A stretch of 64,000 bases of DNA from an uncultured Methanospirillum sp. (GTDB lineage Archaea > Halobacteriota > Methanomicrobia > Methanomicrobiales > Methanospirillaceae), in assembly GCA_964637135.1 (NCBI GenBank), contig CAZWTX010000002.1, positions 62,001 through 126,000 on the forward strand, given 5' to 3'. Of this stretch, positions 9,598 through 56,108 are shown one piece after another (within the stretch, counting starts at the first letter, position 1; every line of letters starts with the position of its first letter). The notes under the pieces were generated by a model. That model was not told where the DNA came from, did not search any database, and saw only the letters and a program-made list of their open reading frames with translations. The translations under genes were made by a program, and so were the position numbers.

Positions 9598-9949
9598 TTC
9601 CGACGGTCTTTCGTAGTTACGGATCTTTTCACGGTTACCATAACGAAATCCTTCCTGATCTCATTTTCAACTTTTTTACCGGTATTTCTCTTAAAATCAG
9701 GTTTCGTTCTAACCTACGCGGTCATTTTATTCACTGAGATATATAGCATAATGCAATATATAAAAAATATGTTCCTTCAGTATTAATGGTCGAAAATCGC
9801 ATAAAACATCAATATAACCGGGATTCCCTGGAGAAACCGAGAATTACATAAACTACTAATTACCTGGTGACTCTCTCACCTTTCCATCATATACTGAGTA
9901 AGAAATCTCAACTTTTTTAATTCATGCTACCAATATCCAATCAGGTATT

Positions 9950-10876
9950 ATGCTCTCCATCTCTTCACTTCAGACCTCCTTTGCCTCACGAGACGGGGCG
10001 GTGAAAGCGGTTGATTCAGTCGATCTGACCCTGAAGTCCGGTGAAAAAATAGGCCTTATCGGCGAGACCGGATGCGGAAAAACGGTTCTTGGGATGTCGG
10101 TCGTACGACTCCTGCCTCCTTCGGCAACGACTACCGGGACGATCACCTACCAGGGCAGATCGCTCTTTGGGTACTCTGAAAAAGAGATGCAGAAGGTACG
10201 GGGATCAGAGATCTCATTCATCCTCCAGAATCCGACAACCTCGTTAAACCCGCTGATCCGGGTCGGAGACCAGGTTGCAGAACGCCTCCGGGAGTATCAG
10301 GGATATTCCGGCAGCAGGGCATACCGGGAGGCCATCCGACTGATGCGTTCAGTAAACTTTCCGGATGCAGAAAAGAGGGGGACGCAGTATCCGCACGAAC
10401 TCTCCGGCGGGATGAGACAGAAGGTGATGATCGCGATGGGGATTGCCGGGGATCCGTCGCTCATCATCGCCGATGAGCCGACAAAAGCCCTCGACAAACG
10501 TAACAAGGCGGAAATACTCGGTATCCTGAACACCATCGCGGGGGACCGGTCCATGATCATGATCACCCACGATCTGACCGCGGCCGGGGAGGTTTGTGAC
10601 CGGATTGCGGTCATGTACGCCGGAGAACTTGTCGAGGAAGGTCCGGCAGAAGAGGTTCTCACGAGCCCTTCCCACCCCTACACCCGGGCATTCATTGCAG
10701 CCCATCCGAAAAAAGGGTGCAGACCGATCCCGGGATCAAGTCCGTCGCTCATATCTCCACCCTCCGGATGCCGGTTCCATCCCCGCTGTCCGGATGCATC
10801 GCCTGAATGCAGTCATAAACATCCGTTCATGAATCCGGCCGGTGATGAGAGGAGTATCAGATGCCACTGCCATTAA
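9950..10876 (+). CDS. Nickel/peptide ABC importer ATPase (DppD/NikD-like) with C-terminal Cys-rich domain
   Basis: GETGCGKT, YPHELSGGMRQ, IIADEPT, HPYT, CRFHPRC. Confidence 0.92.
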   Translation: MLSISSLQTSFASRDGAVKAVDSVDLTLKSGEKIGLIGETGCGKTVLGMSVVRLLPPSATTTGTITYQGRSLFGYSEKEMQKVRGSEISFILQNPTTSLNPLIRVGDQVAERLREYQGYSGSRAYREAIRLMRSVNFPDAEKRGTQYPHELSGGMRQKVMIAMGIAGDPSLIIADEPTKALDKRNKAEILGILNTIAGDRSMIMITHDLTAAGEVCDRIAVMYAGELVEEGPAEEVLTSPSHPYTRAFIAAHPKKGCRPIPGSSPSLISPPSGCRFHPRCPDASPECSHKHPFMNPAGDERSIRCHCH

Positions 10877-11610
10877 TTGAAGTCCAGGATCTGACGAAAG
10901 AGTATTCGTCCGGGTTTATTTCGCAGGATATCCAAAAAGCGGTTGATGGTGTATCTTTCAGGATTTACCCCGGCGAGACGCTCGGTCTTATCGGGGAGTG
11001 TGGAAGCGGAAAGACAACAATCGGAAGGCTGATTCTCAGGTTAATAGAACCGACATCAGGCCGTATCTTCTTTGACGAAACCGAGATCACCCACCTGACC
11101 CGCAGACAGATGAAACCATTCCGGCAACGGATGCAGCCCATCTTTCAGGATCCAGAGAGTTCCTTAAATCCAAGAATGAAGGTCCGGGAGAGTATCGCAG
11201 AACCCTACCGGTTATGGACCGATCTCTCATCATCTGCCATTGCAGAGAAAATCAACGGACTTATCGAGATTGTCGGACTTAATCCCGAACTCTTAAACCG
11301 CTACCCGTATCAGATGAGCGGGGGTCAGAACCAGCGGGTGGTCCTGGCACGGATCCTTGCCCTTGAACCTGAGTTTCTCGTCGCCGATGAACCGACCGGG
11401 TCGCTTGATGTCTCGGTTCAGGCGCAGATGCTTGATATCCTGATGAGATGGAAGGAGAAACATTCCCTCACGATCCTGTTCATCTCTCATGACATCGATC
11501 TCATTCAGGCATTCAGCAACCGGGCGATTGAACTTGAATCGGGAAGAATTGTCCGGGAACACTCCAGTATGTACAGCCAGTTGACACCGGGTAATCCAGT
11601 AATGACCTGA
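10861..11610 (+). CDS. Nickel/peptide ABC importer ATPase (DppF/NikE-like)
   Basis: GECGSGKTT, FQDPESSLNPR, YPYQMSGGQNQR, VADEPT. Confidence 0.92.
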   Translation: MPLPLIEVQDLTKEYSSGFISQDIQKAVDGVSFRIYPGETLGLIGECGSGKTTIGRLILRLIEPTSGRIFFDETEITHLTRRQMKPFRQRMQPIFQDPESSLNPRMKVRESIAEPYRLWTDLSSSAIAEKINGLIEIVGLNPELLNRYPYQMSGGQNQRVVLARILALEPEFLVADEPTGSLDVSVQAQMLDILMRWKEKHSLTILFISHDIDLIQAFSNRAIELESGRIVREHSSMYSQLTPGNPVMT

Positions 11611-11734
11611 TCGGGAAGCCTTTTTTTCGAGTTTGAGATGCTGTTTGAACAATTTATAATATGATTAATTTTTTTTCATCATGTTGTGTGAATTAAATGA
11701 GTATTATTAATACCAAATCTGTAGAATTTCTACT

Positions 11735-12499
11735 ATGTCTCATGGCACCTATGATCTGAAAGAAGCTCTTCGGATCGAATGGGATGGTTCTTCCGGCGGG
11801 TATGATGCCCAGCATTCACATGGTATTCAGACGCAGGAAGAACGGCAGGCATGGATCGATCTCTTCAGATCCATCACCCCTGCAGGTTCCCTGGACATAC
11901 TTGATGTCGGATGCGGGACCGGGGAGATCAGTATGGTTCTTGGGGAAATGGGTCACCGGGTAACCGGGATCGATCTCTCTAAAGGGATGCTCGACAAAGC
12001 CAGGAAAAAAGCGGGCCTGACTGATTACCGGGTTGGTTTTTTCACCGGGGATGCAGAAGCCCTGACGTTTGCTGATAACTCCTTTGACCTCGTGGTCAAC
12101 CGTCATCTCCTCTGGACGCTTCCAAGTCCTGATGCTGCTCTTAAAGAATGGAGCCGGGTTCTTCGGCCGGGAGGAAGCGTTGCCATCATCGACGGCCTGT
12201 GGAGAGATGATTCCTTCTCTGAAAAATGCCGCAGGTTTACAGGAAATCTTGGGGTCCTGCTTACTGAGCGCAAAAATCAGTTTGGAGAGTATTACTCCCC
12301 GGAGATGATCCATGCCCTTCCCCATCCGTACGGGATGACGGCGGATGTTGCTCTTGGTTATGTGAAAGATGCCGGATTTGTATCCCCGGGCATTCATCCC
12401 ATGACCACAATCATGGCAATTCAACAGAAACACATGCCCCTTTCCCGCCGGATATCATTTCATAAAACGTATTTTCTGATTACCGGAAGGAAACCGTAG
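11735..12499 (+). CDS. Class I SAM-dependent methyltransferase
   Basis: ILDVGCGTG, SFDLVVNRHLLWTLP, EWSRVLRPGG. Confidence 0.92.
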   Translation: MSHGTYDLKEALRIEWDGSSGGYDAQHSHGIQTQEERQAWIDLFRSITPAGSLDILDVGCGTGEISMVLGEMGHRVTGIDLSKGMLDKARKKAGLTDYRVGFFTGDAEALTFADNSFDLVVNRHLLWTLPSPDAALKEWSRVLRPGGSVAIIDGLWRDDSFSEKCRRFTGNLGVLLTERKNQFGEYYSPEMIHALPHPYGMTADVALGYVKDAGFVSPGIHPMTTIMAIQQKHMPLSRRISFHKTYFLITGRKP

Positions 12500-12525
12500 G
12501 TTACGAACAAAAAGGAAACACAGAT

Positions 12526-14127
12526 ATGAACAGCAATAGGATGAAATTCTTTATTTCCCTGGCTATCATACTCCTGATCTTCGGAGCGACCGGAACAGTC
12601 AGTGCTGCTGGCGGAAAGACACTCGCAATTGCCATTGGAACAGAACCGAGCGATCTCAATCCGATCACCAGCTCGGGACACGGGGATTATTTTGACCTCA
12701 TTAAGACCTACAGCGGTCTTATCAAGTCAGATGACAATCTCGAAACAGCACCTGACCTGGCAACATCATGGGAACAGCCTGATGAAGGAACCTTTATTTT
12801 CCATCTTCGTGACGGGGTGAAATGGCATGACGGAGAACCATTCACATCTGATGATGTCAAGTTCACGTATGACCTGATACGAAACGGAAATTATGTCTCG
12901 CTCTTCCCCCTCTCATCAGATTACTACGATGTCACAAGCATCGAGACCCCTGATAAGAACACGGTAAAATTTACGGTAAAAAACCCAATCGCACCATTCT
13001 TCGAGAGATTTGCCCTTCCGATCCTTCCAAAGCATCTTCTTGAGGGGCAGGATCTGACTACCTCGGATTACTGGCAGCATCCGGTCGGGACCGGCCCGTA
13101 TGTCTTTGATCACTGGAACAAGGGTGAAGAACTCGTGTTCACTGCGAACAAGAACTACTATGACGGAGTCCCAAAGATTGAAACCCTCAAGTTTATCATG
13201 GTGCCTGACGAGAGTGCCCGGATAAACCTCCTCAAGACCGGCGAAGTTCAGGCGATCAAAGTCGGACCAAAGAATGTTGCTTCGCTCAAGAATGAACCGG
13301 GAATACAGGTTATCTCCCATCCATCGGCGAACTGGTACTCGATTAACATGCCGTATGTCCTGCCCCAGTTCAAGGACAAGGCAGTTCACCAGGCCATTGC
13401 TCTTGCCATCGACCGGAAAGGTATTCTCGACACGATCTTTGCCGGTCAGGGCCTGATCGCCTACGGTCCGTTCAGCCCGGAGAACTGGGTATACAACTCT
13501 GCCATTGAGTATACCCAGGATCCGGAAAAGGCAAAGAAGATCCTTGACGATGCCGGGTGGAAAGTTGGAGCAGACGGAGTGCGGGAAAAAGATGGTGTAA
13601 AGCTCGAGTTCGACCTCCTCTATGTCGCCTCGAACCCGGAACGGAAAGACATTGCCATCGCGGTTGCTTCAGACCTTGATAAGATCGGGATCAAGGCAAA
13701 CCCGGTCGCAAAAGCCAACTGGGACGAGATGACGTACCAGTTGTTCCGGACAAACGCCGTGGTCATGGCCCAGGGATCCCCGTTCGATCCCGATGATTCG
13801 AATTACCGGCTGTACCATTCCAAGTATGTCACTTCTGACCGGTGGGACAACCCGATGCAGTACGTAAATCCCGAGGTAGACAAACTCCTCGACGAGGGCC
13901 GGACCACCTGGGACAGGAACGAGAGAAAAGGCATCTACCAGCAGTTCCAGAAGATTATCACCGATGACCAGCCGGCCGCTCCGATCATCTTCGGGAATTA
14001 TGTGTATGCCGTCAATGACAAGGTCACCGGAACGGTTCCCCGGAACGGTCCGCATGGCGGAGGGAACACCGGATCTATCATGGGCGATCTCTGGTGGAAT
14101 GTCGAGAAATGGGATCTTGCCGGGTGA
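12526..14127 (+). CDS. Family 5 (NikA/DppA/OppA-like) substrate-binding protein
   Basis: Signal peptide; PDLATSWE, FHLRDGVKWHDGEPFTSDDVKFT, PVGTGPY. Confidence 0.93.
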   Translation: MNSNRMKFFISLAIILLIFGATGTVSAAGGKTLAIAIGTEPSDLNPITSSGHGDYFDLIKTYSGLIKSDDNLETAPDLATSWEQPDEGTFIFHLRDGVKWHDGEPFTSDDVKFTYDLIRNGNYVSLFPLSSDYYDVTSIETPDKNTVKFTVKNPIAPFFERFALPILPKHLLEGQDLTTSDYWQHPVGTGPYVFDHWNKGEELVFTANKNYYDGVPKIETLKFIMVPDESARINLLKTGEVQAIKVGPKNVASLKNEPGIQVISHPSANWYSINMPYVLPQFKDKAVHQAIALAIDRKGILDTIFAGQGLIAYGPFSPENWVYNSAIEYTQDPEKAKKILDDAGWKVGADGVREKDGVKLEFDLLYVASNPERKDIAIAVASDLDKIGIKANPVAKANWDEMTYQLFRTNAVVMAQGSPFDPDDSNYRLYHSKYVTSDRWDNPMQYVNPEVDKLLDEGRTTWDRNERKGIYQQFQKIITDDQPAAPIIFGNYVYAVNDKVTGTVPRNGPHGGGNTGSIMGDLWWNVEKWDLAG

Positions 14128-14133
14128 TCTCTG

Positions 14134-15120
14134 GTGGATCACAGTCTCCTCCGGTATACCGGCCGGAGAGTCCTTCAGATTCCACCACTCCTGGTCGGAA
14201 TCACGATCCTCTCTTTTTTCATCTTCTATCTCTCTCCGATTGATCCGGTCATTGCCTATCTCGGACTTCCCACGGTCCAGAAGATGCCGGTCGAAGATGT
14301 AGAAAAGATCAAAGAACAACTCGGCCTGAACCAGCCGATCTATATCAGGTATGGCATCTGGCTCTCCCAGATCTCGACCGGCGATCTCGGATTTTCTCAT
14401 ATCCAGCACAGGCCGGTACTTCAGGTGATATTGGAGAAATTTCCGGCAACACTCCTTCTAACGATTCCTGCGTACGGGATGGCAATGATCCTCGCGGTCT
14501 TCTTCTCCCTTGCTGCTGCGGCACGTGAGGGATCCCGGTTTGATCGTTCCATGACCGGCATCAGTTATATCATGTATGCAACTCCTTCCTTCCTTGTTGC
14601 CCTCCTTCTGATGCTTGTCTTTGCGGTCTGGCTGGGCTGGCTTCCGGCATCGCGAATGGCTTCGGTGACCGAACCCGGAACGCTTCTTGGCGTGATCGTG
14701 GACCATATCAGGCATCTCATTCTCCCGGCAACCGCCCTCGCGGTTAGTCATTTCGCGGTGTTTTACGGTTTTCTCCGGTCCAGCCTCTCGGAATCGATGA
14801 GAGAGGATTACATCACCACGGCCCGGGCGAAAGGTCTTGATGAACGAACGATCCTGAACCGGCATGCATTCCGAAATTCGCTTCTTCCATTCATTACCCA
14901 GATCGGTCTTGCGATCCCCTACTTTATCGCCGGAAGCGTGGTCATCGAGACGATCTTTGCCTGGCCAGGGATCGGACGGCTCACCTTTGAGGCAGCAATC
15001 CGTTCTGATTACATGCTGCTCATGGGGCTGACCTTCTTTACGAGTCTCATCGTCATCCTGGGAAACCTGCTTGCAGACATCGCCTATGCAATCGTTGATC
15101 CGAGAGTCAGATATGAGTGA
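14134..15120 (+). CDS. Nickel/peptide ABC permease (DppB/NikB-like)
   Basis: EAA loop DYITTARAKGL, IETIFAWPGIG, ADIAYAIVDPRVR. Confidence 0.92.
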   Translation: MDHSLLRYTGRRVLQIPPLLVGITILSFFIFYLSPIDPVIAYLGLPTVQKMPVEDVEKIKEQLGLNQPIYIRYGIWLSQISTGDLGFSHIQHRPVLQVILEKFPATLLLTIPAYGMAMILAVFFSLAAAAREGSRFDRSMTGISYIMYATPSFLVALLLMLVFAVWLGWLPASRMASVTEPGTLLGVIVDHIRHLILPATALAVSHFAVFYGFLRSSLSESMREDYITTARAKGLDERTILNRHAFRNSLLPFITQIGLAIPYFIAGSVVIETIFAWPGIGRLTFEAAIRSDYMLLMGLTFFTSLIVILGNLLADIAYAIVDPRVRYE

Positions 15121-15958
15121 AAATATCAAATTTCTGGGAGGTTTTTATCCGAAATCACCGGGATTGATACTTCTCTGTTGTATCTGTCTCATCGCAGTAT
15201 TTGCCCCGGTGATGACACCCCATGATCCGGTGAAGGCAGATCTCTCCGAATCTGAGCAGCCCCCGTCAATCAACCACTTTTTCGGAACCGATACGCTGGG
15301 ACGCGATGTGTTTACCCGGACTCTGTATGGAACCCGAATCTCGCTTCTCGTCGGGATCTGTGCTGCGATTGTCGCCGTTGGCCTGGGTGCCTGTATCGGG
15401 ATCTCGGCCGGGTATTTCGGAAGAATCGTCGATAGCATCCTGATGCGGATCGTCGATACTATCTACTCACCGCCCGAGACGATCCTGATCATCGTCCTCG
15501 TGATGATGTTTCCACGAAGTGTTATGAGTATTATTGTTGTAATCGGGCTGACGCACTGGATGAGCACGGCTCGGATGATCAGAAGCGATACGCTCTCCCT
15601 CCGGGAACGACCGTTTGTCGAGGCTGCAGTTGCCCTCGGTGCCGGAGATCCGTACATTCTTCGCCGGCATATCTTTCCGAATCTTCTGCATGTGATTATC
15701 ATCTCGGTCACCCTGATGACCGCTCATGCGATCCTCACCGAATCGTTTCTCAGTTTTCTCGGGCTCGGAATTCCTCCCCATATCGCAAGTTGGGGTAACA
15801 TGCTCAATGAGGCTCAGCGGGATATCATGCGGGGCATCTGGTGGACCACGCTGTTTCCGGGGATCATGATTGTACTGACCGTCCTTTCCATATACCTTGT
15901 CGGCGACGAACTCAAGGAGTGGCTGGTGCCAAAGCGTGAGATGAGAAGCGAGATGTAA
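15113..15958 (+). CDS. Nickel/peptide ABC permease (DppC/NikC-like)
   Basis: HFFGTDTLGRDV, FVEAAVALGA, ESFLSFLGLG. Start taken at ATG 15113. Confidence 0.92.
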   Translation: MSENIKFLGGFYPKSPGLILLCCICLIAVFAPVMTPHDPVKADLSESEQPPSINHFFGTDTLGRDVFTRTLYGTRISLLVGICAAIVAVGLGACIGISAGYFGRIVDSILMRIVDTIYSPPETILIIVLVMMFPRSVMSIIVVIGLTHWMSTARMIRSDTLSLRERPFVEAAVALGAGDPYILRRHIFPNLLHVIIISVTLMTAHAILTESFLSFLGLGIPPHIASWGNMLNEAQRDIMRGIWWTTLFPGIMIVLTVLSIYLVGDELKEWLVPKREMRSEM

Positions 15959-22916: not shown

Positions 22917-23075
22917 GAACGTGTGTGACCTCCACAGCCACAGACCCGGCTGCCGGATAATGAGTATCTAGTATTATTGTGAGCCGGGCGGTTATTACGA
23001 TTTTGAATCGGGTGTGATCAAATATCCTCTTATCTGAAAAAAATCAAATAATCGTCTGCTACGTGGTGTATTCTT

Positions 23076-24335: not shown

Positions 24336-24340
24336 CCTCC

Positions 24341-27979: not shown

Positions 27980-27980
27980 G

Positions 27981-36219: not shown

Positions 36220-36567
36220 TCTGACAGTGAATGAACGCTGACAGGTTAATGAGTACCACCGGTCGGAGTTATTATTACATCCTGCCCGGAGAGATTCTCC
36301 GGAGGCCTGGTGAGTTAGGAATTTAATACAAAGATAAAAATGAACCTATTTTTGTGACTCGGCTGCTTGAGACATCATTTCGATGATCCTGGGACTGAGA
36401 TTGCATCCAGGAGGTCCTGTTACTCTATCATCAGGGGTAGCACAATATCCTGACATCATCTCCTAATATGATTTAATTAGGAAAACCAATCCCTCCAGTA
36501 ACACGGATCATACATTATTGAGAAAAGATCACAACTCCTTTTAATTCATATCACACATTCTGTTGCT

Positions 36568-38148: not shown

Positions 38149-38195
38149 ACCATTTCCATCTTATTTTTCTCAATTAAGTACCATCACTTAGGAGA

Positions 38196-40950: not shown

Positions 40951-41675
40951 TCGAACTTTACAATATCTCCCACTCCTACCGGAACGGACCGCTCGGCAGC
41001 CGGCAAATGGTTTTAAAGCACTGCACCCTCTCGATCGGGGAAGAAGAGTCGGTCGGGCTGATGGGTCCCTCCGGATCCGGGAAAAGCACCCTAGCCCGTA
41101 TCCTTGCCGGTCTCGAACGACCTGAACAGGGTTCGATCAGGTTCCGTGGGCAGGATATTGACCGCCTGGACAGAATCGGAAGACGGGAATTTCGCCGTTC
41201 TGTCCAGATGCTCTTCCAGGATCCAGGCGGTTGTTTCCACCCGGCCCGACGGATGGGAGACTCGATTCGTCATGTTCTCGATCTCCACGGGTACCCGGCA
41301 AACGGGCAGGATAAGCAGATATTTGAGGTGATATCCCGGGTCGGACTGACACCGGATATCCTCTCCCGCTATCCAGATCAGGTTTCAGGGGGGCAGGCAC
41401 AACGTCTTGCTCTTGCCAGGATCCTCCTTGTCCGGCCCAGGCTGATCATCCTTGACGAACCAACCTCCGGACTCGATCTCTCCGTGCAGGCACAGATCCT
41501 GCACCTCCTCCGGGAGGTTGGGGAGAGGGAGAAAACTGCCTTCCTCCTGATCTCACATCATCCGGAGGTGATCAGGTTCATGACCAGCCGTTCATGGGTG
41601 ATCCGGGACAGTGAACTGCGTTCCACAGGGATGAATACCGGTTCTGCAGGGAAGGGAACACCGGGTCTGGTCTGA
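40935..41675 (+). CDS. Nickel/peptide ABC ATPase (NikE/DppF-like)
   Basis: GPSGSGKST, SGGQAQR, ILDEPTSGLD. Confidence 0.9.
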   Translation: MSPALIELYNISHSYRNGPLGSRQMVLKHCTLSIGEEESVGLMGPSGSGKSTLARILAGLERPEQGSIRFRGQDIDRLDRIGRREFRRSVQMLFQDPGGCFHPARRMGDSIRHVLDLHGYPANGQDKQIFEVISRVGLTPDILSRYPDQVSGGQAQRLALARILLVRPRLIILDEPTSGLDLSVQAQILHLLREVGEREKTAFLLISHHPEVIRFMTSRSWVIRDSELRSTGMNTGSAGKGTPGLV

Positions 41676-45877: not shown

Positions 45878-47395
45878 CTATACCAACGAAATCGCCGATT
45901 CAACTCCGGATGAAATCTTCTTCACGATTCCCGGGATCGTGGAGGTGATAATCGCCGTATCTGAAGCCTTCCCTGCCTTCCGATCGTCGGAATCCCCGGG
46001 AATGAGATCTGCCTTCAGGACCGGCCGCAGGTTCTCGACCGTCATCTTCTCCACCCAGGGATCGGCATCGGTGATGATGATCTCATCCACGAACCGGTCG
46101 AGTTCCTGTGCCAGTGCCCAGGAGACAAACCGTCCGCCAAGAAGAGCAACACTATCACCGATACCTCCGCCGGCAGCCATCGACCCGATATCAGAAACCG
46201 TATATCGCACCATCGTCCGTTCAAACAAAGGTGTCGAGCAGAGGCAGACCCAGTGGGCATCTCCAAGGGTCGTTCCCCCGGTTTTTTTCGGATAGACCCT
46301 GTCCGGCCCGACTACCTTCACGGCACATGCCAATGCCTCAAGTTCTCCTTTCTGGATTGGAGCCCGGGTCCATCGCCCGTAAATTTCCTCCCTGATGATC
46401 TGAAGAATGCGGGGCAGTCCGAAATTTCCCCTCCTGGCCGTTCCGGGTGCATATCCACACATGTACCCATGGTGATTCCTCGGAAATCCGGTGATGATCG
46501 CGTTCAGGCCAGCCTGAAGACCTATCCGGCATTCATCCTCGTATGCCCCGTTGGTGGCGACCACTTTTCCAGGAGCAAGGATTCGGCCAATTGCCACCGC
46601 CCGGGCGAATGCATCTAGACGGTCCGGGGCTGAATTAAACGGTCCCCCTTCGATCACGAATACATCCGCACCCATCTCAAGACCTGCAGAGAACCCGGCA
46701 ATAAGATCTTCATACCCGTCACCGACGAACAAAATCGCTTCGACACCTTTTCCATGTTTCCTCGCAAGATCAGCAACCTCGCGGGCTTCATCCAGCGGGG
46801 CGGCGTGGCCCTCGGCTCCCTGGACACAGGTGAGATTCACGGCCACCGAGGAGGAGATCTTTATCCATTCCTCGCGGTCGGCAAGTCCGTCCCTCTCCTT
46901 GTCCATCAGGCGGGAATGGATCCGATCACGGGGACACCCGTCAAACGGTGGACCTTCGTTATAACACTGGCCAGGACACCCGATGATCTCCTTCGGGAGA
47001 CGCATCGGGCCATTTCTTCCGAAATGATCAAGATCGAGAGGAACTTCCGTGATCTCCCTGACCTTCCGCATGAGGTCAATCCCCCGCATTCCATGGGCCT
47101 CGGCGATATCGGCAAAGGCATACGCACATACGTGAATAGATGCCCCGATCGCGTCAGAGAGAAGACAATTCCCGAGGATATCCACCATATCAAGATCAGA
47201 TGCACAGGTTCCTGAGAAGATTTCCGTGAGATCGCATCCCATCGGGAACCGTTTGAACATCCTTCCAAGGCCGATTACCTGTGCCCGGTTCAGTTCTGAT
47301 ACCGCATCGATGATCTCCAGGGGATCTTTTTTTCTCCGGGTTATCTCCCATGCTGCATCCGGATCATGAATTGCTCTGTTTATTAAACCCTGCAT
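45878..47395 (-). CDS. hcgG: FeGP cofactor biosynthesis protein HcgG
   Basis: FPMGCDLTE, IHVCAYA, LDLDHFG, CPGQCY..GPPFDGCPRDRIHSRL, TGFPRNHHGYMCGY; located in the hcg/hmd cluster. Confidence 0.92.
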   Translation of the reverse strand: MQGLINRAIHDPDAAWEITRRKKDPLEIIDAVSELNRAQVIGLGRMFKRFPMGCDLTEIFSGTCASDLDMVDILGNCLLSDAIGASIHVCAYAFADIAEAHGMRGIDLMRKVREITEVPLDLDHFGRNGPMRLPKEIIGCPGQCYNEGPPFDGCPRDRIHSRLMDKERDGLADREEWIKISSSVAVNLTCVQGAEGHAAPLDEAREVADLARKHGKGVEAILFVGDGYEDLIAGFSAGLEMGADVFVIEGGPFNSAPDRLDAFARAVAIGRILAPGKVVATNGAYEDECRIGLQAGLNAIITGFPRNHHGYMCGYAPGTARRGNFGLPRILQIIREEIYGRWTRAPIQKGELEALACAVKVVGPDRVYPKKTGGTTLGDAHWVCLCSTPLFERTMVRYTVSDIGSMAAGGGIGDSVALLGGRFVSWALAQELDRFVDEIIITDADPWVEKMTVENLRPVLKADLIPGDSDDRKAGKASDTAIITSTIPGIVKKISSGVESAISLV

Positions 47396-47439
47396 GATGG
47401 CTTCACCTCGGATATTCACCTACAGAAGGAAGAAGTACC

Positions 47440-47481
47440 GTATTACGTATTTGAAATAGGTATTATTTCATAATACGTAAT
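47440..47481. promoter_or_regulatory. 17-bp inverted repeat with one bulge, overlapping a GTATTAC-N13-GTATTAT box upstream of hcgG
   Basis: ATTACGTATTTGAAATA-ggtat-TATTTCA(T)AATACGTAAT at 47442-47481, read directly. Confidence 0.65.
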
Positions 47482-47503
47482 TGAACCTACAATATGTATC
47501 TTC

Positions 47504-48079
47504 CTATACAACAGAATCCGGACCGGATGGATAAACCGCCAGATCATCCGGAGGAATAATTATCTCACTCCCCCGGGGAGCGGGGTCATATACACCCGTT
47601 ATCAATTCTTCAAAGAGAAACAGGGCTTTATATAATCCTGCACGTTTCCGATCCAGGATCTTACGGGGAGAAGCGGAACGAAGATCTGCATAGACACCCG
47701 AGGATGTGACGAGGGTGAGAACCTCACCGGATATCGCAATACCCCCCCCTCCTATCCCGGCCGTTGTCCCGATGCCGATATCAGCGTTTGCCATTCGACG
47801 AACCGCATCTGCCATCAGGATCGCCATCTGGCGGTCACCCTCCTGGTCATATACCTTGATTCCGGAGAGGATTTCCACGGGTCGGGGGGGATCGAAGGAG
47901 AGAATGGCTCTGATCCCTGAAAGGGTGGGAATGAACAGCGCTGCATCAACGATCAGGGGATATCCTTCCTGATGAATCCGGAAGGGATATTCATGCGGAT
48001 ATCCCCGGGAAAAGGCATGCAGTTCATACCCGACCATCCCGTGGGTGAAACATTCGGCAGTGGCTACCCGGATTGTCAT
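47504..48079 (-). CDS. hcgF: FeGP cofactor biosynthesis protein HcgF (UPF0254)
   Basis: VATAECFTHG, FIPTLSG, IKVYDQEGD, ADIGIGTTAGIGGG. Confidence 0.92.
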   Translation of the reverse strand: MTIRVATAECFTHGMVGYELHAFSRGYPHEYPFRIHQEGYPLIVDAALFIPTLSGIRAILSFDPPRPVEILSGIKVYDQEGDRQMAILMADAVRRMANADIGIGTTAGIGGGGIAISGEVLTLVTSSGVYADLRSASPRKILDRKRAGLYKALFLFEELITGVYDPAPRGSEIIIPPDDLAVYPSGPDSVV

Positions 48080-48729
48080 TTTCTATTCGCAAGGAGTCGG
48101 AGTGCTTCTGCAGCGATCTTCCGGGAGACCTGTTCTATGATTGCAGGGGTCACCGGTTCCCAGTCACGGATCAGTTTTCCGGTTCCGACCAGGAGATGGT
48201 CGCGGATTCCATGATCACGAAGGGCACTCACGATCGGGTTTTCCGGGTCAGCCTCCCCGATCCCGACGGCAGTGACCGGTTCGTCTCCTACCCCGAACAC
48301 ACCCATGGTACTGATGGTCTTCGCTCCGGACGCCTGTGCATACCTGATGATCCCCGCTGTTACTGGGAGGGTATCCCCCCCGGCTATCATGATGCAGACA
48401 ACATCGCCGGTTATGAGATCAAGATTGAATGGAGAGATATTGATAGGGATACCGATAATCTCCCGGGAGAAACCTGGTCCGGAGAGGTTCTCAAAAAATT
48501 TCACCTTGAAATCTCCGACTGAACCACCCATCATCCGGAAGACATGATCATCAGCCGAGATCTTCTGCCCGTCTATAGCGGTTATTCTCTTCGGGCCACC
48601 CCGGTGAACCTGCATCAATTGCAGAGCAGTCCGAAAACCAAGTCGGCCGAGTCCGACCAGAGTTATCTCCCCATGGGGAATCTTCATCTTCTCGAGATCT
48701 ACAACAGATATATCATCCATTTCTTCCAT
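48076..48729 (-). CDS. hcgE: FeGP cofactor biosynthesis protein HcgE (ThiF/E1-like adenylyltransferase)
   Basis: PHGEITLVGLGRLG, HRGGP, DGQKISADD, IAGGDT, ISTMGVFG. Start taken at MEEMDD (48729). Confidence 0.92.
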   Translation of the reverse strand: MEEMDDISVVDLEKMKIPHGEITLVGLGRLGFRTALQLMQVHRGGPKRITAIDGQKISADDHVFRMMGGSVGDFKVKFFENLSGPGFSREIIGIPINISPFNLDLITGDVVCIMIAGGDTLPVTAGIIRYAQASGAKTISTMGVFGVGDEPVTAVGIGEADPENPIVSALRDHGIRDHLLVGTGKLIRDWEPVTPAIIEQVSRKIAAEALRLLANRK

Positions 48730-48988
48730 TGCTTCACACTCTTTTATCGCAGCCGTAATAGAATGAATTTGTATTACATTAATTAACATAGGTATTAACA
48801 TTCGTGGATGTGGCGAATGCATTTTTCAGAATATTTTTTATTAAAAATTGTAAAACCATGGAAATTGAAGAAATCAGGATAGAGGGTCGGCCTCTCCAGG
48901 GTATTGAACTTATTGGGATATATTAGCAAAATTTCATACTTTAAAGTTAAGTTTAATTATTATCGCATCTCTTGTACGTCCAGAGATT

Positions 48989-49591
48989 ATGAAACCAGTT
49001 ATTGCAGCCCTACTGGGAAGTCCGCTCCAGGACGGCAACACAGCCCAGGTATTGCATCATGCGATTGCCGGTGCAACTGAATCCGGATGCGAGGTCAGGA
49101 GGATTGATATCTTCTCCCTTGAGATCATCCCGTGCCGGGAATTCAATCTCTGTAGGAATCATCCGGCCTGCATGATTGAGGACGATGTCAGTGCCCTGTA
49201 CCCTTTTTTCCAGGAGATAGACGGACTCATCATGGCCACCCCGGTTATGACGATGGGTGTTCCGGGGGCATTCAAATCGTTCATGGACCGGTTCCAGGTT
49301 TTTTATTGTGCCAAGTACGAGAGAAAAGAACGGATGGTTTCGAAAGAGAAGCGGATGCATCGCCGGACTCTTCTCATCTCACTGTCAGGAATGAACCTTC
49401 CGGATAATTTCATCGGGCTCAGGCAGACCGCCGACGCATTCTGCGATATCATCGATGCTCCAATCACAGGGGAACTATATATTCAGGATATGGACTCAAA
49501 ACGTGCCATCAGCCGCTTCCCGGATATTCTTGAAGAGGCACGCAGAAAGGGGAGAGAACTCGGTGAGGAAATTCTCACCAGGATCTCCTGA
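48989..49591 (+). CDS. Iron-sulfur flavoprotein (Isf)/NADPH-dependent FMN reductase family protein
   Basis: LLGSP..DGNT, PCREFNLCRNHPAC..EDD, IMATPV, FKSFMDR. Confidence 0.85.
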   Translation: MKPVIAALLGSPLQDGNTAQVLHHAIAGATESGCEVRRIDIFSLEIIPCREFNLCRNHPACMIEDDVSALYPFFQEIDGLIMATPVMTMGVPGAFKSFMDRFQVFYCAKYERKERMVSKEKRMHRRTLLISLSGMNLPDNFIGLRQTADAFCDIIDAPITGELYIQDMDSKRAISRFPDILEEARRKGRELGEEILTRIS

Positions 49592-49631
49592 ACAGGAAAG
49601 ATCGGAGAGCGTCTGTTGCTACAACCGGAAT

Positions 49632-50396
49632 TTACCTCGGAATGGAATGATTCATTCTTTGGGAAGGAAGAAGAGAGGAGGATTCATTCCAGGGAACACC
49701 GGGATCATATACCCGGACTGATATTCCAAGGGATTCAAGAAGATCTTTCAGTGTATACAGGCCCGGGAGTTCGGTTGCATGGTGGGTGGCATCGATAACC
49801 GGAAAGCGAAGCATTTTTGCAAGGATCGCACCCGGATGGGTCAGATCCCCGGAGAGAAGAAGATCTGCCTCCCGTGAACGGGCCAACCGGATGTACCCCG
49901 TATTGAGTCCGAATCCGGATACCAGGGCAATTTTTCGGAGAACACGGTCCCGTTCACCCATCACCGTCCGGCAACCTGAAATCCGAAGAACCCGCTGCAC
50001 TTCGGTAACAAACCTTCCCATGGTCACCGGTCCGGATGCAGGTTCGCACATCCTGCCAATACCGGAATCCTCGTCAAGGACACCAGAAGGGATAAGACTA
50101 AGCCGTTCTGCAAGGGCATCGCACGCACCTCCCGGAACGATGTCCCAATTCGAATGGATGACGAATGACGGGATTACCGGCGGTTCGAGAGGGGGATGAT
50201 GGAGTACGAGGAGATCATACGCATGATAATTGATCCCGGAGACCGGCGGCGGGAGGTAATCGAGGAGCATAAGAACGGAATTAACCTGTAGTACGGCAGG
50301 ATCCGCTTTTCCGAGGTACCCGACCAGATCATTCGGTACTGCCAGCCCGGGAGGAACCCGCTCGTCGATGAGACGAAAGAGCGAGGAAGCCTGCAT
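49632..50396 (-). CDS. hcgD: FeGP cofactor biosynthesis protein HcgD (Nif3-like dinuclear metal protein)
   Basis: LHHPP, IHSNWD, VSGFGL, SGDLTH, DATHHATE. Confidence 0.92.
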   Translation of the reverse strand: MQASSLFRLIDERVPPGLAVPNDLVGYLGKADPAVLQVNSVLMLLDYLPPPVSGINYHAYDLLVLHHPPLEPPVIPSFVIHSNWDIVPGGACDALAERLSLIPSGVLDEDSGIGRMCEPASGPVTMGRFVTEVQRVLRISGCRTVMGERDRVLRKIALVSGFGLNTGYIRLARSREADLLLSGDLTHPGAILAKMLRFPVIDATHHATELPGLYTLKDLLESLGISVRVYDPGVPWNESSSLLPSQRMNHSIPR

Positions 50397-50397
50397 C

Positions 50398-51189
50398 TTA
50401 TCCCTCTCCGGGATTCCGGACTACTGAGAGGAGAGAATCAAGGTTCCTTCCGATAACCTCATCCGGATCCACCGGACAGAGGGATGAGACAATGAGTGCG
50501 GGGCGATCGAGCAGGGTAAAAAACCGGGTGGGATCCCGCTCCTGGAAAAGAATCCGCTCGAAAAAATCCAGGGACGCAGAACAGTACAGAACCCCTTCCC
50601 GCCCGAGTACGTCGCTCATCGATCGCCTGATGATCTCAATAGTAAGCGTCATTGTTCCGGAGGTCTTTGCAATGAGGCCGGTAGAAAACAGTACACCCCT
50701 ATCTGGAGCATTGAATTTTTCAGCCAGCCTGATGCACTGGCTTTTGTTTCTGATACATGCATCACTTCCGTCCGAACAGGGATCCTCAACGATGAATGAA
50801 CGGGCAGAGAACCGTTCCAGAAATGCTGCAGATATTCCCCCAAGTCCGGTCGTCTCGACGATACAATCCCATGTGCCGGTTAGTTCCTCTGGGTGGGTGG
50901 TGAATCCCGCTCCGGAAGGAACAAGGGACTGTACCTGCGGATGAATGTCGTGGATGAGTACTTCAGATCCCGGCAGCAGGAACCGGGCTACCGCAGCACC
51001 GGTCAGGTAGGATCCGAAGATCAGTGTCCGGCGGGGAAATAGTCCCCGCGTATCCAGCCAGGCGGATACCGCCTCCCCTTTTTTCTGACCAACCAGGGTC
51101 AGGATATCATATATCGTGTACTGTGAGAAGGTGGTCTGAACCGTCCGGGTGATCCCCCATTCCTGCCGGAGACCGGAAGAAACTTCCAT
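50398..51189 (-). CDS. hcgC: FeGP cofactor biosynthesis methyltransferase HcgC
   Basis: WGITRTVQT, GSYLTG, DIHP, TTGLGG, VEDP, KTSGTMTLT. Confidence 0.92.
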   Translation of the reverse strand: MEVSSGLRQEWGITRTVQTTFSQYTIYDILTLVGQKKGEAVSAWLDTRGLFPRRTLIFGSYLTGAAVARFLLPGSEVLIHDIHPQVQSLVPSGAGFTTHPEELTGTWDCIVETTGLGGISAAFLERFSARSFIVEDPCSDGSDACIRNKSQCIRLAEKFNAPDRGVLFSTGLIAKTSGTMTLTIEIIRRSMSDVLGREGVLYCSASLDFFERILFQERDPTRFFTLLDRPALIVSSLCPVDPDEVIGRNLDSLLSVVRNPGEG

Positions 51190-51671
51190 TACCGGATCCC
51201 TCCGGTAAACCCGACTCTCACCAGGGCCTCCCGCATTTCGTCACGGACGGCATCAGAAACCTCCTTCCCATGAAGACAGTTTGCCGGGGAAAGCGCAGCG
51301 GAGAGGATCCTCCCTTTTGCATCAAGAATGACGAGCATCGATCCCGAACCGGGAACACCGAGCCGTCCCCGGGCAATGACAAGATCAGAAGGAGAGAGAT
51401 CAAGAGCCATACAGGCCTTTGTCACCGCAGGCATACGGCTGAGATCGGCACAGGCGGTGGGGAGCAGCAGATGTGTTGCAGCAGGCAGGCCGAACTCGGC
51501 CAGTACCTCGTTGATGGCCAGCACTTTCCGATCGTTCCAGTTCGGAACGACAATTCGTTTTGTATTACGGATATACGCCCGTATCTCTGCAAGTTCTGCA
51601 GGCGTATCCCCTTTGCGGGTTCCTTCGACTGATTGATGATATGCTTGATAGATGGATTCTTCCAGGGTAAT
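51189..51671 (-). CDS. hcgB: FeGP cofactor guanylyltransferase HcgB (about 160 aa, apparent ATT start)
   Basis: The ORF-track 111-aa ORF extends in frame upstream: (I)TLEESIYQAYHQSVEGTRKGDTPAEL...KVLAINEVL...ADLSRMPAVTKA..DLVIARGRLGVPGSGS...SAALSP. Confidence 0.88.
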   Translation of the reverse strand: MTLEESIYQAYHQSVEGTRKGDTPAELAEIRAYIRNTKRIVVPNWNDRKVLAINEVLAEFGLPAATHLLLPTACADLSRMPAVTKACMALDLSPSDLVIARGRLGVPGSGSMLVILDAKGRILSAALSPANCLHGKEVSDAVRDEMREALVRVGFTGGIR

Positions 51672-51695
51672 GGTATCACCTCACGGGCGGTCTGC

Positions 51696-51720
51696 CCTTC
51701 TGATCCCGGTGATCAGAAGG
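51696..51720. other. Perfect 10-bp hairpin between hcgA and hcgB
   Basis: CCTTCTGATC-ccggt-GATCAGAAGG. Confidence 0.7.
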
Positions 51721-51739
51721 ATAACCTGCCTGGTATCGG

Positions 51740-52834
51740 TTAATCGGTGAACAGTTCCGAACCCGGGCGAAGGCCGGGAACCGGTATGGCGGGTTTGAGA
51801 CGCCTGGTCAGAAACGGCCGGTCTGACCCCGGCAGCTCCCTGAACTCTGATACCAGCCCCATCTCTTTGATTGCACCAAGAACTCCCCGGAGCGTCCCGT
51901 ATACCGGCGATCCAACCCCTTTGATCTGCAGGGGGTAGGAATCGGGGATGACCGTTGCAAGGTTGTCTGCTCCGGCTGCCAGGGAGAATTTCACATTATC
52001 CGGACCGATAGTCGGTGTCGGAACGGTGATGCGGATTTCAGGATAGAGAATCCGGGTAATGGCAATGGTCTTCATCTGTTCGAGGATGGAGCAGGCGGGA
52101 TGGTTTTCCATCGGTGTTCCCAGGTACGGATTAAAACCCATGATTGGGATCTCACCGAGTGTGGAAAAGGAACGGAGGAACTGGAGATGACGGATACGAT
52201 CGAGGGAGGATTCTCCAACACCGATAAGGAGCCCGGAAGATAATTCAATCCCTTTTGAGGAGATAAGTTCACAGGTGGCAATCCTCTGCCTGAGCGTCTC
52301 ACCCGGTTTCAGGTACGAGAAGAGGGATTCGTTGGTTGTCTCAAGATTACAGCAAACGGTTTCTGTATCGACCGCTGCGATCTCGTCCAGGGTATCTGCC
52401 GTGATATCGGTGCCGACATTGATGATCAATTCCAGGGAGGTATTCTCTTTCACGATGCGTGCAGCAGTAACAGCGTGGGTACCCTGGTGGCCGTGTGCGC
52501 CGGAACAGCTGACCCGGGGAATCCCGGATTGTTCGATTATCCGGGCAGCCTGCACTATTTCCTCCCCAGTTTTATAAAAAGGGGAGTAATACCCGTTCTC
52601 CGAGGTCCCTGCAGCAAATCCACAATATTTACATTTCGGAGTGACGGCACACTGGTTCGTGATATGGATTGTTGATGTGAGTTTGATGTGGGGATGGTAC
52701 TGATTCCTGATATCACAAGCGGTCTCTACCAGGGAGACCAGTTCATCCTGACCGGTTATACCAAAGAGTTCAAGAAGATCGTGCCGGTCAGGCGGAGAAC
52801 CGGATTGGATTTTGCGTATAATTTTTTGTATCAT
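51740..52834 (-). CDS. hcgA: Radical SAM enzyme HcgA (HmdB)
   Basis: Atypical CX5CX2C motif (CAVTPKCKYC) characteristic of HcgA; RVSCSGAHG, CCNLET, GADNLATV. Confidence 0.93.
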   Translation of the reverse strand: MIQKIIRKIQSGSPPDRHDLLELFGITGQDELVSLVETACDIRNQYHPHIKLTSTIHITNQCAVTPKCKYCGFAAGTSENGYYSPFYKTGEEIVQAARIIEQSGIPRVSCSGAHGHQGTHAVTAARIVKENTSLELIINVGTDITADTLDEIAAVDTETVCCNLETTNESLFSYLKPGETLRQRIATCELISSKGIELSSGLLIGVGESSLDRIRHLQFLRSFSTLGEIPIMGFNPYLGTPMENHPACSILEQMKTIAITRILYPEIRITVPTPTIGPDNVKFSLAAGADNLATVIPDSYPLQIKGVGSPVYGTLRGVLGAIKEMGLVSEFRELPGSDRPFLTRRLKPAIPVPGLRPGSELFTD

Positions 52835-53029: not shown

Positions 53030-53057
53030 TTGTTACTACTCTTATCATTGGTAACAC
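53030..53057. promoter_or_regulatory. NikR-like operator upstream of hmd
   Basis: TTGTTAC-N14-GTAACAC, followed by a second palindrome CACATATT-gg-AATATGTG (53055-53072). Confidence 0.6.
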
Positions 53058-53106
53058 ATATTGGAATATGTGCATGATCGGGTAGACAACCTATTGGAAT
53101 GTCATT

Positions 53107-54165
53107 ATGAAAGTTGCAATACTCGGCGCAGGATGTTACAGGACACATGCTGCTGCCGGAATCACAAACTTTGCACGGGCTTGTGCAGTTGCTGAGAAAG
53201 TAAAAAAACCAGAGATCTCGATGACCCATTCAACCATGATTATGGGAGCCGAACTGAAGGAACTGGCAGGGATCAAGGATATTACGATATCTGACCCGAT
53301 ATTTGACAATCAGTTCACCGTAATCGACGACTTTGCCTATGAGGATGTGATGAAAGCTCATAAGGCAGGCCAGCCGGAGAGCATTATGCCCAAGATCCGT
53401 GAGAAGGTAAAAGCGGTTGCAAAAGACCTCCCAAAACCACCAAAGGGAGCCATACATTTCACTCACCCGGAGAAACTCGGATTCAAGATTACCACAGATG
53501 ACAAGGAAGCAGTTGCCGATGCAGACTGGATCATCACCTGGCTTCCGAAAGGTGATATGCAGAAGGGAATCATCGAGAAATTTGCAGGAAATATCAAGGA
53601 AGGGGCGATCATCACCCATGCCTGTACGATTCCCACAACAAAGTTCTACGGGATCTTTGAAGAACTCAACCTGATCAATTCGAAGAAGGTCCAAGTCTCG
53701 TCGTACCATCCGGGAGCTGTTCCGGAGATGAAAGGCCAGGCATTCATCTCGGAAGGCTACGCCTCTGAGGCGACTATTAACAAGCTCTTTGAGATGGGAA
53801 CCACCGCACGGGGCGAGGCATTCAAACTGCCGGCAGAACTTCTCGGACCGGTATGTGATATGTGTGCCGCCCTGACGGCAATCACCTATGCCGGCCTGCT
53901 TACCTACCGGGATTCAGTCATGAATGTACTCGGTGCCCCGGCCGGGTTCACCCAGATGATGGCCAGGGAATCCCTCGAACAGGTCAATGCGCTCATGAAC
54001 AAGGTCGGGATCAAGAACCTGGAAGAACACCTGGATCCGGGAGTATTCCTCGGAACAGCTGACTCCATGAATTTCGGAGCCGTCGGAGAAGTCCTGCCGA
54101 CTGTTCTCGAGGTACTGGGTAAGCGGAAGGGAAAATCCTGTACACCTGACGGCATGTGTAAATAA
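53107..54165 (+). CDS. hmd: [Fe]-hydrogenase, H2-forming methylene-H4MPT dehydrogenase
   Basis: MKVAILGAGCYRTHAAAGITNFARA, TWLPKG, Fe-ligand region THACTIPT, SYHPGAVPEMKGQ, GPVCDMC, GTADSMNFG. Confidence 0.97.
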   Translation: MKVAILGAGCYRTHAAAGITNFARACAVAEKVKKPEISMTHSTMIMGAELKELAGIKDITISDPIFDNQFTVIDDFAYEDVMKAHKAGQPESIMPKIREKVKAVAKDLPKPPKGAIHFTHPEKLGFKITTDDKEAVADADWIITWLPKGDMQKGIIEKFAGNIKEGAIITHACTIPTTKFYGIFEELNLINSKKVQVSSYHPGAVPEMKGQAFISEGYASEATINKLFEMGTTARGEAFKLPAELLGPVCDMCAALTAITYAGLLTYRDSVMNVLGAPAGFTQMMARESLEQVNALMNKVGIKNLEEHLDPGVFLGTADSMNFGAVGEVLPTVLEVLGKRKGKSCTPDGMCK

Positions 54166-54361: not shown

Positions 54362-54919
54362 ATGAAACCGGATGAGCACGGTTGGATACCGGGCCCTGAG
54401 ATCGTGATCGCCGGCTGTGGGAACCCGGTTTTTGCCGATGACGGATTCGGACCTGCAGTTATCAGGGTGTTATCATTTCTTGTTCTTCCGCAAACCGTCA
54501 AGCCGATTGATGCAGGTATCTGCGGGCCTGATTTGATCTTTCCCTTTCTCGATCCGGCGATAACCAGAACCCTCATCATCATTGATACATTAGATTCCAG
54601 ATCGGTTCCTGGTACGGTGATCCTGCTGCAGCCGGAAACGCTCAGGGAGACTGCCCTTACAGATGCCATTCCGGGAGGAATTGCCAGTTCAATCCAATCC
54701 CTGCCACCAGGAATCACCACCTATCTGATCGGATGCCAACCGGGAGAAATATCCTATCCGTTCATGCGGATCGGCCTTTCTGATCCGGTCAGGATGGCAA
54801 TTCCCCGTACAGTGGAGATGGTGATGGATATCCTTGCAGAATGCACCGGGGATATACAGGAGATTGTCTGCCCGGGTGTCCCGCGTTATAAATCATTAGG
54901 ATCCGGTATATCCGGATAG
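54362..54919 (+). CDS. Hydrogenase maturation protease family protein, FrhD-like (divergent)
   Basis: IAGCGNPVFADDGFGP, IDAG, IIIDT, PGTV, LIGCQP, IGLSDPV. Confidence 0.82.
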   Translation: MKPDEHGWIPGPEIVIAGCGNPVFADDGFGPAVIRVLSFLVLPQTVKPIDAGICGPDLIFPFLDPAITRTLIIIDTLDSRSVPGTVILLQPETLRETALTDAIPGGIASSIQSLPPGITTYLIGCQPGEISYPFMRIGLSDPVRMAIPRTVEMVMDILAECTGDIQEIVCPGVPRYKSLGSGISG

Positions 54920-55448
54920 AAAATCCGACAATCAGGCCGAAAAAGGTACCTTTTTTCTCATCCGGGACAGAGAGGTTTTCTAACTCCCCGTCTGTCCCAG
55001 TATTAAAACCGAAGAAGACCGGGAAGATCATACAACTCACGGGTTTTGGTCATGATCTCAATACCTTCATATAGGATACCAACATCCATACGGGGATTCC
55101 GGACACCCGATATACATATGAAACGACAAGAGTTGAGCAGATGGCGGGGGATACCTGAACCGAATGAAGCCTACCCAACAGGGTAGCAGGCACCTCCGCC
55201 ATGTGAAAAGTGCTCACAGAATCACATGATATGATCCTGAATCACGATTTACCATGGAAGTTACCATGAATGATAACCCCATGAGGAGTGCATATGATAG
55301 TACATATGCAGTTATATATTTATCACACTAAATCATAATAAGTTTCCTATCTCTCATACGATAGTCGCCCTGACACGGATACTCCTAATATACTGATTTT
55401 TTCACTCATCACCCATAACGGGCGATAATCTTACCACGATCTACTGAA

Positions 55449-55475
55449 GTATTACTAAAATAAAAAAAGTAATAA
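55449..55475. promoter_or_regulatory. NikR-like palindrome
   Basis: GTATTAC-N13-GTAATAA. Confidence 0.55.
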
Positions 55476-56081
55476 CCTATATCTCCTCTAAGAGTACACG
55501 TACCAGTAACAGGAGAACACCTTGATGAGCAGGTGATCACTGTTACACACATACCAGTCAGAGAGGATACATCAGGTCACACTCATGGAACAGTTGGTTT
55601 CATCCGGTTAATTCCGGCCAGAGGGACATCAGCCGGAGGTACCTGCTGTTCGTGGGAGCATCAGACACAACCAGTCACGTTTCAAAATGCCTTCACCATG
55701 CCTGATCTGCCGATCCCTATGAGGGTCTCATTCGGTAACGGTATAGAGGGAGATGTGGCAGAAACCTGGTTCGTCGACATGACTCCGGCTCATCCGAGGA
55801 GATCCTGAAGGAAATTCTCACAGTACCACGAACGAGGACAAGAGCGTTCGCCGGGTTCAGAAGGAGAAGGTTTCCTTCCCTTCTGCACTCAACAGTTCAG
55901 GACTATCTCTTCTCACAGAAATCCCGGAAGGGATTCTTCATCAATGGTTATCACCACCGTTGGGGATGATATCAGATTAACCACGGTATGACAATCAGCA
56001 GTCACAGACGGATGGTGTCGTGATGATACCTGCCTGCATGAGAGATATTTAGAATACATTTTAAGATAAAATGGTTATTTT

Positions 56082-56108
56082 TTATTACGAATTTTAATAT
56101 CGTGATAA
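56082..56108. promoter_or_regulatory. NikR-like palindrome upstream of the mcrD paralogue
   Basis: TTATTAC-N13-GTGATAA. Confidence 0.5.

Follow-up and report, generated by a model that had tools for sequence, protein, structure and literature searches.

Which regulator, if any, reads the inverted repeat that recurs in the promoters around an archaeal [Fe]-hydrogenase gene? The DNA analysed here (the window, 64,000 nucleotides, G000:C2:62001-126000, where G000 is the present genome, that of an uncultured Methanospirillum sp., and C2 its contig) carries hmd, which encodes this enzyme, the hcg genes for its iron-guanylylpyridinol (FeGP) cofactor, a stand-alone mcrD paralogue and many transporter genes (Table 1; other genomes, contigs, loci, families and genera bear our own handles G, C, L, f and g). 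An initial annotation had listed nine sites in its promoters that resemble RTRTTAC-N13/14-GTAAYAY and had assigned them to the nickel regulator NikR. Comparison of sequences makes us quite confident that the five core sites (47440, 48771, 53030, 55449 and 56082) would serve as operators at which the single NikR of G000 would keep the hmd-hcg cluster and its neighbours repressed when nickel is plentiful; a further site at 22971 and the site at 9924 are probably NikR operators likewise.

The repeat in the window and in related genomes

All nine sites are present at the coordinates and spacers of the initial annotation, with one to three mismatches to its consensus. Counted over the 34 intergenic regions of the window, sites with at most one mismatch numbered 3, those with at most two 8 and those with at most three 21, whereas dinucleotide shuffles gave means of 0.03, 0.62 and 7.5, and none of 200 shuffles reached any of the three counts. 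At up to two mismatches there were four matches at spacer 13 and four at spacer 14, compared with none to two at each of 16 other (decoy) spacer lengths. Because the consensus had been derived from these same sites, this test is circular, and the promoters of relatives were therefore examined.

Of the 401 genomes in the order, 11 have hmd, among them G000. We counted matches upstream of hmd, hcg, frhD, mcrD and transporter orthologues in 8 relatives (30 promoters). This set was chosen after a first look at the orthologue sites; it omits the near-duplicates G081 and G079 as well as promoters shared between divergent genes. The 30 promoters held 2 sites without mismatch, 8 with at most one and 16 with at most two (shuffle means 0.00, 0.12 and 1.24; 0 of 300 shuffles reached any of these counts), and the matches peaked at spacers 13 and 14. 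The footprint is mainly that of the host's family, whose 17 promoters account for 7 of the 8 sites with at most one mismatch. The hmd orthologues have sites, with no mismatch in G264 and with one mismatch in G261 and in G285; sites also precede the hcgG orthologues of G243, G081 and G054 and the hcgE orthologues of G264, G081 and G243, and a perfect one lies upstream of the mcrD orthologue of G264.

A de novo palindrome search recovered the motif as well. Run in symmetric form on 36 promoters of relatives without the window, it returned (A/G/T)TATTAC, with a log-likelihood of 95.6 for spacers 13 and 14 together compared with 39-73 for single spacers, the solutions at 12 and 16 being shifted views; an untied model of 18 of these promoters, from the host's family, recovered the identical inverted repeat. 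Each half-site of the motif is 7 bp long, GTAWTAC-like and nearly palindromic, and its partner lies at a distance of 20-21 bp; sets of three are common. This symmetry of the half-site explains why pairs may be inverted, tandem or everted, and also the arrays of three on a 20-21 bp period, such as the one at 55428-55475. As both the 13/14 peak and the de novo recovery indicate, the two half-sites lie about two helical turns apart and span 27-28 bp in total, as in NikR operators.

The genome was scanned with a de novo matrix learned only from relatives, which at a 9-bit threshold gave 308 intergenic matches. The five core sites are all among the top 10, and the window held five matches of at least 15 bits compared with 0.25 per decoy spacer. 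The other four of the nine sites did less well: 9924 is intermediate in strength, with a low rank, 11701 is lower still (rank 108), and 36417 and 36548 are under the threshold. A symmetric matrix, whose training sites were chosen with the initial consensus, produced the same division into strong and weak sites and raised 22971, which lies between a divergent FecCD/BtuC-type permease gene and a binding protein gene. With this matrix, decoy spacers predict some 18-24 window matches of the quality of 11701, 36417 or 36548 and about 2 of that of 9924. The initial list overcalled the transporter promoters, since three of its four sites there are at background level (36417) or misregistered (11701 and 36548), and it lacked 22971 and 55428. 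High-scoring sites also occur at C4:43630, before an extra fwdA/fmdA copy, and at C11:20674, between nikN and nikO; they are not claimed here because such hits as a class do not exceed the decoy rate.

NikR as the predicted regulator and the competing explanations

The window contains no nikR, so the regulator would act in trans, as had been proposed. The genome's one nikR match, on another contig (C9:70645-71100), is full length, with a ribbon-helix-helix domain (RHH, PF01402) and NikR_C (PF08753). Aligned to solved NikR chains, its product has His/His/His/Cys at the E. coli NikR positions, which we take to be its nickel ligands, and a beta-strand R-I-G-V-S; the form R-I-G-[VI]-S, an instance of R-x-G-x-S, was found in all 12 Methanomicrobiales NikR proteins extracted. 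The NikR of Geobacter uraniireducens, in work of Benanti and Chivers from 2010, reportedly has an Arg-Gly-Ser beta-strand and binds cooperatively to repeated sites. That strand type resembles the one found here; binding was reportedly shown for that protein, whereas ours is predicted from sequence.

Besides this protein, the agreement with a published NikR consensus, the comparison of nikM with promoters for other metals and the extra nikR genes beside the cluster all favour the assignment to NikR. Among 23 nikM promoters (25 loci, 2 dropped for short upstream DNA), 18 have an exact GTAAYAY 35-62 bp upstream, whereas shuffles gave a mean of 0.4; as a rule a second half that begins with GT follows at 20-21 bp, and the best two-part model is GTAACAT-N13/14-GTACTAA. 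In contrast, no match better than four mismatches was found in the promoters of feoAB, a second feoB, znuA, cbiM and modA1, so that the Fe, Zn and Co uptake promoters and one of the two for Mo/W are without the motif. Extra nikR genes adjoin the cluster in G264, G081 and G243, and adjoin either the cluster or a second mcr operon (see below) in these three and in G261, G119, G252 and G274.

The published signal most like ours is the predicted delta-proteobacterial NikR consensus, GTGTTAC-N13/14-GTAACAC, described also in an everted form and with the nickel-free hydrogenase genes hydAB2 of D. desulfuricans as a predicted target (Rodionov et al. 2004, PMC545781). In the passages of that paper on this signal, the GT-N3-AC half-site frame, the 13/14 spacer, the nikM targets, the everted variants and a nickel-free hydrogenase target are all as here; in our case, however, the host is archaeal, the halves are AT-richer (GTATTAC), the predicted targets are Hmd, hcg and the mcrD paralogue, and arrays of three half-sites around the TATA box are frequent. 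The E. coli operator, GTATGA-N16-TCATAC, is likewise a bipartite site of 28 bp, which in the passages concerned mediates Ni-dependent repression of nickel import (PMC7055735), but its half-site is different and the E. coli strand is R-V-T-I-T as opposed to R-I-G-V-S. The motif class is thus already published for bacteria, and the predicted methanogen sites add a member to it.

Nickel control of hmd in methanogens is long-known physiology, for which there are now exact candidate sites and a candidate protein. In Methanothermobacter marburgensis, where the nickel regulation of hmd, mtd and frh has been studied, passages of two papers report that hmd transcription rises under nickel limitation (PMC3087415) and that the Hmd, HcgG, transporter, CobN1 and NikR1 proteins increase (PMC12350162). 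Hmd, HcgG, transporters, a CobN-like protein and a NikR are targets in common with our predictions; M. marburgensis belongs to another methanogen order, and the passages name NikR homologues and give no operator. Passages of a 2025 paper argue that the nickel-limited route matters in nature, again with no operator named. Our literature search, which covered the texts of mostly openly accessible papers, found neither a methanogen NikR operator nor a link between NikR and methyl-coenzyme M reductase (MCR). The predicted sites would extend the nickel response to Methanomicrobiales, where the rare hmd travels with hcg, a second MCR operon and extra nikR genes.

By analogy with NikR biology, each of the two RHH dimers in a Ni(II)-loaded NikR tetramer would contact one half-site, the two half-sites being separated by two helical turns and facing the same side of the DNA; TBP, TFB or RNA polymerase would thereby be kept from the promoter. 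Because the sites appear to lie over, just after or astride TATA-like boxes and predicted starts (placed by eye, here and below), binding would be expected to block initiation. The hmd site begins about 16 bp past a TATA-like box, and a weaker third half-site in this promoter (53009) overlaps the likely TATA box at 53007-53014. Under nickel starvation NikR would be released; Hmd and its FeGP cofactor would then be made, Hmd together with Mtd taking the place of the nickel enzyme Frh, and importers and the extra McrD would be produced too.

Several observations weigh against NikR control as proposed. In families f4 and f6, 13 promoters gave a single site with at most one mismatch, a count reached by 15 of 300 shuffles, and no peak at 13/14, and the f4 hmd promoters prefer an 11-bp spacer. 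No site was found in the 250 bp upstream of nikR in G000, and autoregulation of nikR was rejected for this reason. The nikM half-sites are mostly tandem or everted instead of inverted, G000's own nikM promoter has one good half-site only, and modA2 has a weak hit with three mismatches (11.7 bits). Outside C2:40-153 kb, matches with spacers 13 and 14 are about as frequent as those with decoy spacers, and the rest of the genome lacks the 13/14 peak at up to two mismatches to the initial consensus; a genome-wide regulon was rejected since there was little or no excess over decoys there. In addition, the relatives of G000 share ancestry and are not independent samples. In these f4 hmd promoters (L009, L010 and L011), ATATTAC-N11-ATAATAA units repeat in tandem every 31 bp.

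Chance resemblance within AT-rich promoters, or a side effect of TATA and TFB-recognition element (BRE) composition, would account for 11701, 36417 and 36548 as they were drawn, and matches with three mismatches turned up at every spacer. For the hmd, hcg and mcrD sites this explanation is rejected by the dinucleotide shuffles, the decoy spacers and the de novo recovery in relatives, and for the five core sites it is refuted by conservation, a refutation that does not cover the weak sites; as an explanation of the motif we hold chance to be extremely improbable. It is also improbable that the motif is real and is read by another regulator, such as DtxR/IdeR, a ModE-like protein or an unknown RHH protein, in response to iron, molybdenum, H2 or redox state instead of nickel. 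G000 does have DtxR-like genes, the island includes FecCD/BtuCD-type transporters, modD and cobW, Hmd requires iron, and a NikR paralogue without nickel ligands adjoins the cluster in G081 and G243. However, the uptake promoters for other metals mostly lack the motif as described above, a half-site is kept at nikM, the sequence and spacing are those of the known NikR signal, and G000 has only one NikR-like match. The paralogue itself (L048:1489-2001 in G243; L050 in G081) stands beside the frhD/hcg cluster and has kept R-I-G-V-S while losing the His/Cys ligands; it may act as a competitor or a subunit that does not sense nickel.

NikR might instead activate at least some of its targets with nickel, as H. 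pylori NikR activates urease, and activation could cover mcrD and the second MCR operon, whose enzyme needs the nickel cofactor F430. The second-mcrB site in G000 and G264 ends just upstream of a TATA-like box, where archaeal activators also bind. Nevertheless, the hmd site covers the predicted start site, the mcrB half-sites of genus g4 lie on both sides of the TATA box, and Hmd and HcgG are up at low nickel in M. marburgensis according to the passages cited above (PMC12350162). We consider activation unlikely and repression by nickel-loaded NikR the better account of the core sites.

A second MCR operon beyond the window

Past the end of the window, the contig continues with a DUF4198 gene behind a strong two-site array (C2:134882) and with an mcrBDGA operon (C2:135413-139728). 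MCR is the enzyme behind most biological methane. It is possible, if still rather doubtful, that NikR directly controls this second operon, which has no mcrC, and the spare McrD, in addition to Hmd and its cofactor, in a nickel-famine island of Methanomicrobiales. If so, nickel would directly switch MCR isoenzymes by transcription and set which methane-forming enzyme is made.

In G264, G285, G081, G243, G021, G051 and G079, hmd, hcg and a second mcr operon are linked in this order; an frhD-like gene accompanies them everywhere except on the contig of G285. The island mcr operons have the order BDGA or BGA without mcrC, which, beside a main mcrBDCGA operon, is the layout of isoenzyme II (mrtBDGA). 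All four complete genomes with hmd that were checked have two mcrA genes; G237, which lacks hmd, has one. A group of McrA proteins that share 83-93% identity with the island copy is represented in 12 of the 115 other genomes of the family, namely in all 5 with hmd and in 7 without, and in several of the latter nikR, nikM or cobN-like genes are adjacent.

A matrix whose training set held no mcr promoters scored 9 of 16 second-operon promoters above their shuffles (p<0.05), compared with 1 of 5 promoters of main mcr operons; G261, whose sequence was too short, was left out. Fisher's p was 9e-6 for the second operons (9 lineage representatives), a value overstated because these are kin, compared with 0.22 for the main ones. 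The de novo matrix, itself partly trained on five second-mcr promoters, gave 11 of 16 and 0 of 5. The proximal second-mcr site of G000 was not significant with it (p=0.18), and a divergent hydrolase-like gene, instead of mcrB, may be the target of the strong site at C2:140367. Pooled spacing in the second-MCR promoters showed no sharp 13/14 peak; at the second mcrB of genus g4 the half-sites are kept and the spacers vary.

PDB scores, at 846 and 839 bits against the solved chains of MCR II (840 and 837 for the main McrA of G264), did not establish that the island McrA is an orthologue of the Methanobacteriales MrtA. In the G000 assembly the island mcrBDGA is the sole mcr operon, and no mcrC and no frhA match were found. 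The missing main mcr operon and frhA are probably assembly gaps (116 contigs, 97.7% complete); true loss may be the case instead, and G235, G274 and G135 also have the second type of McrA only. In the passages concerned, M. hungatei GP1 is described as the only one of its relatives with Hmd and two divergent mcrA genes, no connection being drawn there between these two features (PMC11346949), and nickel limitation leaves M. marburgensis with about 10% of its Mcr and about 50% of its Mrt (PMC12350162).

Genes of the DUF4198 family recur in the cluster, in G000 (L159:8107-8832, that is G000:C2:134107-134832), G264 and G081 (L021:892-1824 and L024:740-1501), with strong sites upstream in G000 and G081. 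This family has been linked to nickel uptake.

Features of the window and further observations

Genes were called with a purpose-made hexamer model, so gene starts are approximate.

Table 1. Predicted operators, candidate half-sites and genes of the window (ranks are among the 308 intergenic matches to the de novo matrix unless stated otherwise)
Feature	Position	Strand	Remarks
Predicted operator before hmd, TTGTTAC-N14-GTAACAC	53030..53057	+	rank 9; also upstream of divergent hcgA
Predicted operator before hcgG, GTATTAC-N13-GTATTAT	47440..47466	-	rank 2; rank 1 with symmetric matrix; 45 bp from start codon
Predicted operator before hcgE-hcgF, GTATTAC-N14-GTATTAA	48771..48798	-	rank 3; divergent flavoprotein gene opposite
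Array of three half-sites (55428, 55449, 55469)	55428..55475	+	55449 pair rank 1, the genome's best inverted site; 55428 pair 14.6 bits
Predicted operator before stand-alone mcrD paralogue, TTATTAC-N13-GTGATAA	56082..56108	+	rank 10
Additional site, GTATTAT-N14-TTATTAC, with weak third half	22971..23018	.	13.5 bits de novo; rank 5 with symmetric matrix
Candidate operator before Nik/Dpp-type operon 1	9924..9951	+	rank 51; just after TATA-like box; right half overlaps ATG
Weak half-sites before methyltransferase gene	11686..11727	+	conserved register 11686-11713, not 11701
CTGTTAC-N13-GTAGCAC, fits delta-type consensus	36417..36443	+	background score; not conserved
Half-site pair astride TATA box of Nik/Dpp-type operon 2	36528..36554	+	background-level score in G000
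hmd, [Fe]-hydrogenase	53107..54165	+	TIGR01723, 591.8 bits (cut-off 341)
FeGP cofactor genes hcgA-G	45878..52834	-	family matches for all but hcgE
FrhD-like hydrogenase maturation protease gene	54362..54919	+	in cluster of most relatives
Stand-alone mcrD paralogue	56130..56675	+	PF02505; 32-35% identity to McrD of nearby mcr operon
Nik/Dpp-type ATP-binding cassette (ABC) operon 1 with methyltransferase gene	9950..15958	+	under curated nickel-transporter cut-offs; substrate inferred
Nik/Dpp-type ABC operon 2	36568..41675	+	under curated cut-offs; substrate inferred

At the transporter promoters, alignment of orthologues shifts the picture that the initial annotation had drawn. The orthologues of 9924 have a half-site behind an ATTC-like flank. 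Near 11701 the conserved half is TTAATAC at 11707-11713, and the G264 orthologue of the gene behind the 11686 site has a site with one mismatch. The left half of 36548 is conserved, most orthologues having a GTAACAC/GTAATAC-like half at the aligned position; the half that pairs with it is found 20 bp upstream, beyond the TATA box, and the right half as first drawn is the start-codon region. No counterpart of the 36417 region was found in the orthologues aligned. A de novo search of 17 promoters of transporter orthologues yielded just an AT-rich, weakly spaced signal.

The remarks of the initial annotation that the 9924, 36548 and 53030 sites begin with AATTCAT and that two of them follow a TTTTAATT TATA-like box are correct as sequence. 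AATTCAT as a separate element was rejected: it is not kept in hmd orthologues, and it consists of the tail of a TATA box or, as at transporter and nikM promoters, an ATTC flank, followed by the first letters of a half-site.

The window's Hmd is 86-87% identical to Methanospirillum Hmd records. Of the hcg genes, hcgA (TIGR03957) and hcgG (TIGR03958) match curated families, hcgD is Nif3-like, and the products of hcgB, hcgC and hcgF were recognised via Pfam. The family search gave no match for hcgE, whose name rests on its position and is presumably supported by its E1-like N-terminus. A flavoprotein gene on the plus strand (48989-49591) splits the hcg run.

The gene targeted by the array at 55428-55475 is uncertain. 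The frame behind it is an orphan of 91 codons (55533-55808) with His and Cys residues, for which no homologue among proteins of 50-160 residues, no family and no match in the loci retrieved from relatives was found; the ATG that lies at a suitable distance from a ribosome-binding site starts a frame of just three codons, which overlap the GTG of the orphan frame.

Two related arrangements were seen in relatives. In G081 an Hmd paralogue with 27% identity to Hmd (L025/L024, stitched position 26993-28018) is divergent to hcgG and shares its predicted operator. In G264 a divergent P-II family gene (L020:8035-8373), downstream of hmd, frhD and mcrD, has a perfect GTGTTAC-N14-GTAATAT 57 bp upstream.

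The window also contains many FecCD/BtuCD-type transporters, methyltransferases, modD and cobW, and it has three Nik/Dpp-type ABC operons in all. Around the hmd cluster, G000:C2:40000-153000 is a long series of genes for binding proteins, permeases and S-adenosylmethionine (SAM) methyltransferases. The methyltransferase genes recur inside the transporter operons, perhaps serving a metallophore or peptide ligand. Two ABC ATPase genes, at window positions 21010-21834 and at G000:C2:54959-55783, have identical first 30 residues, which suggests a recent duplication of a transporter block.

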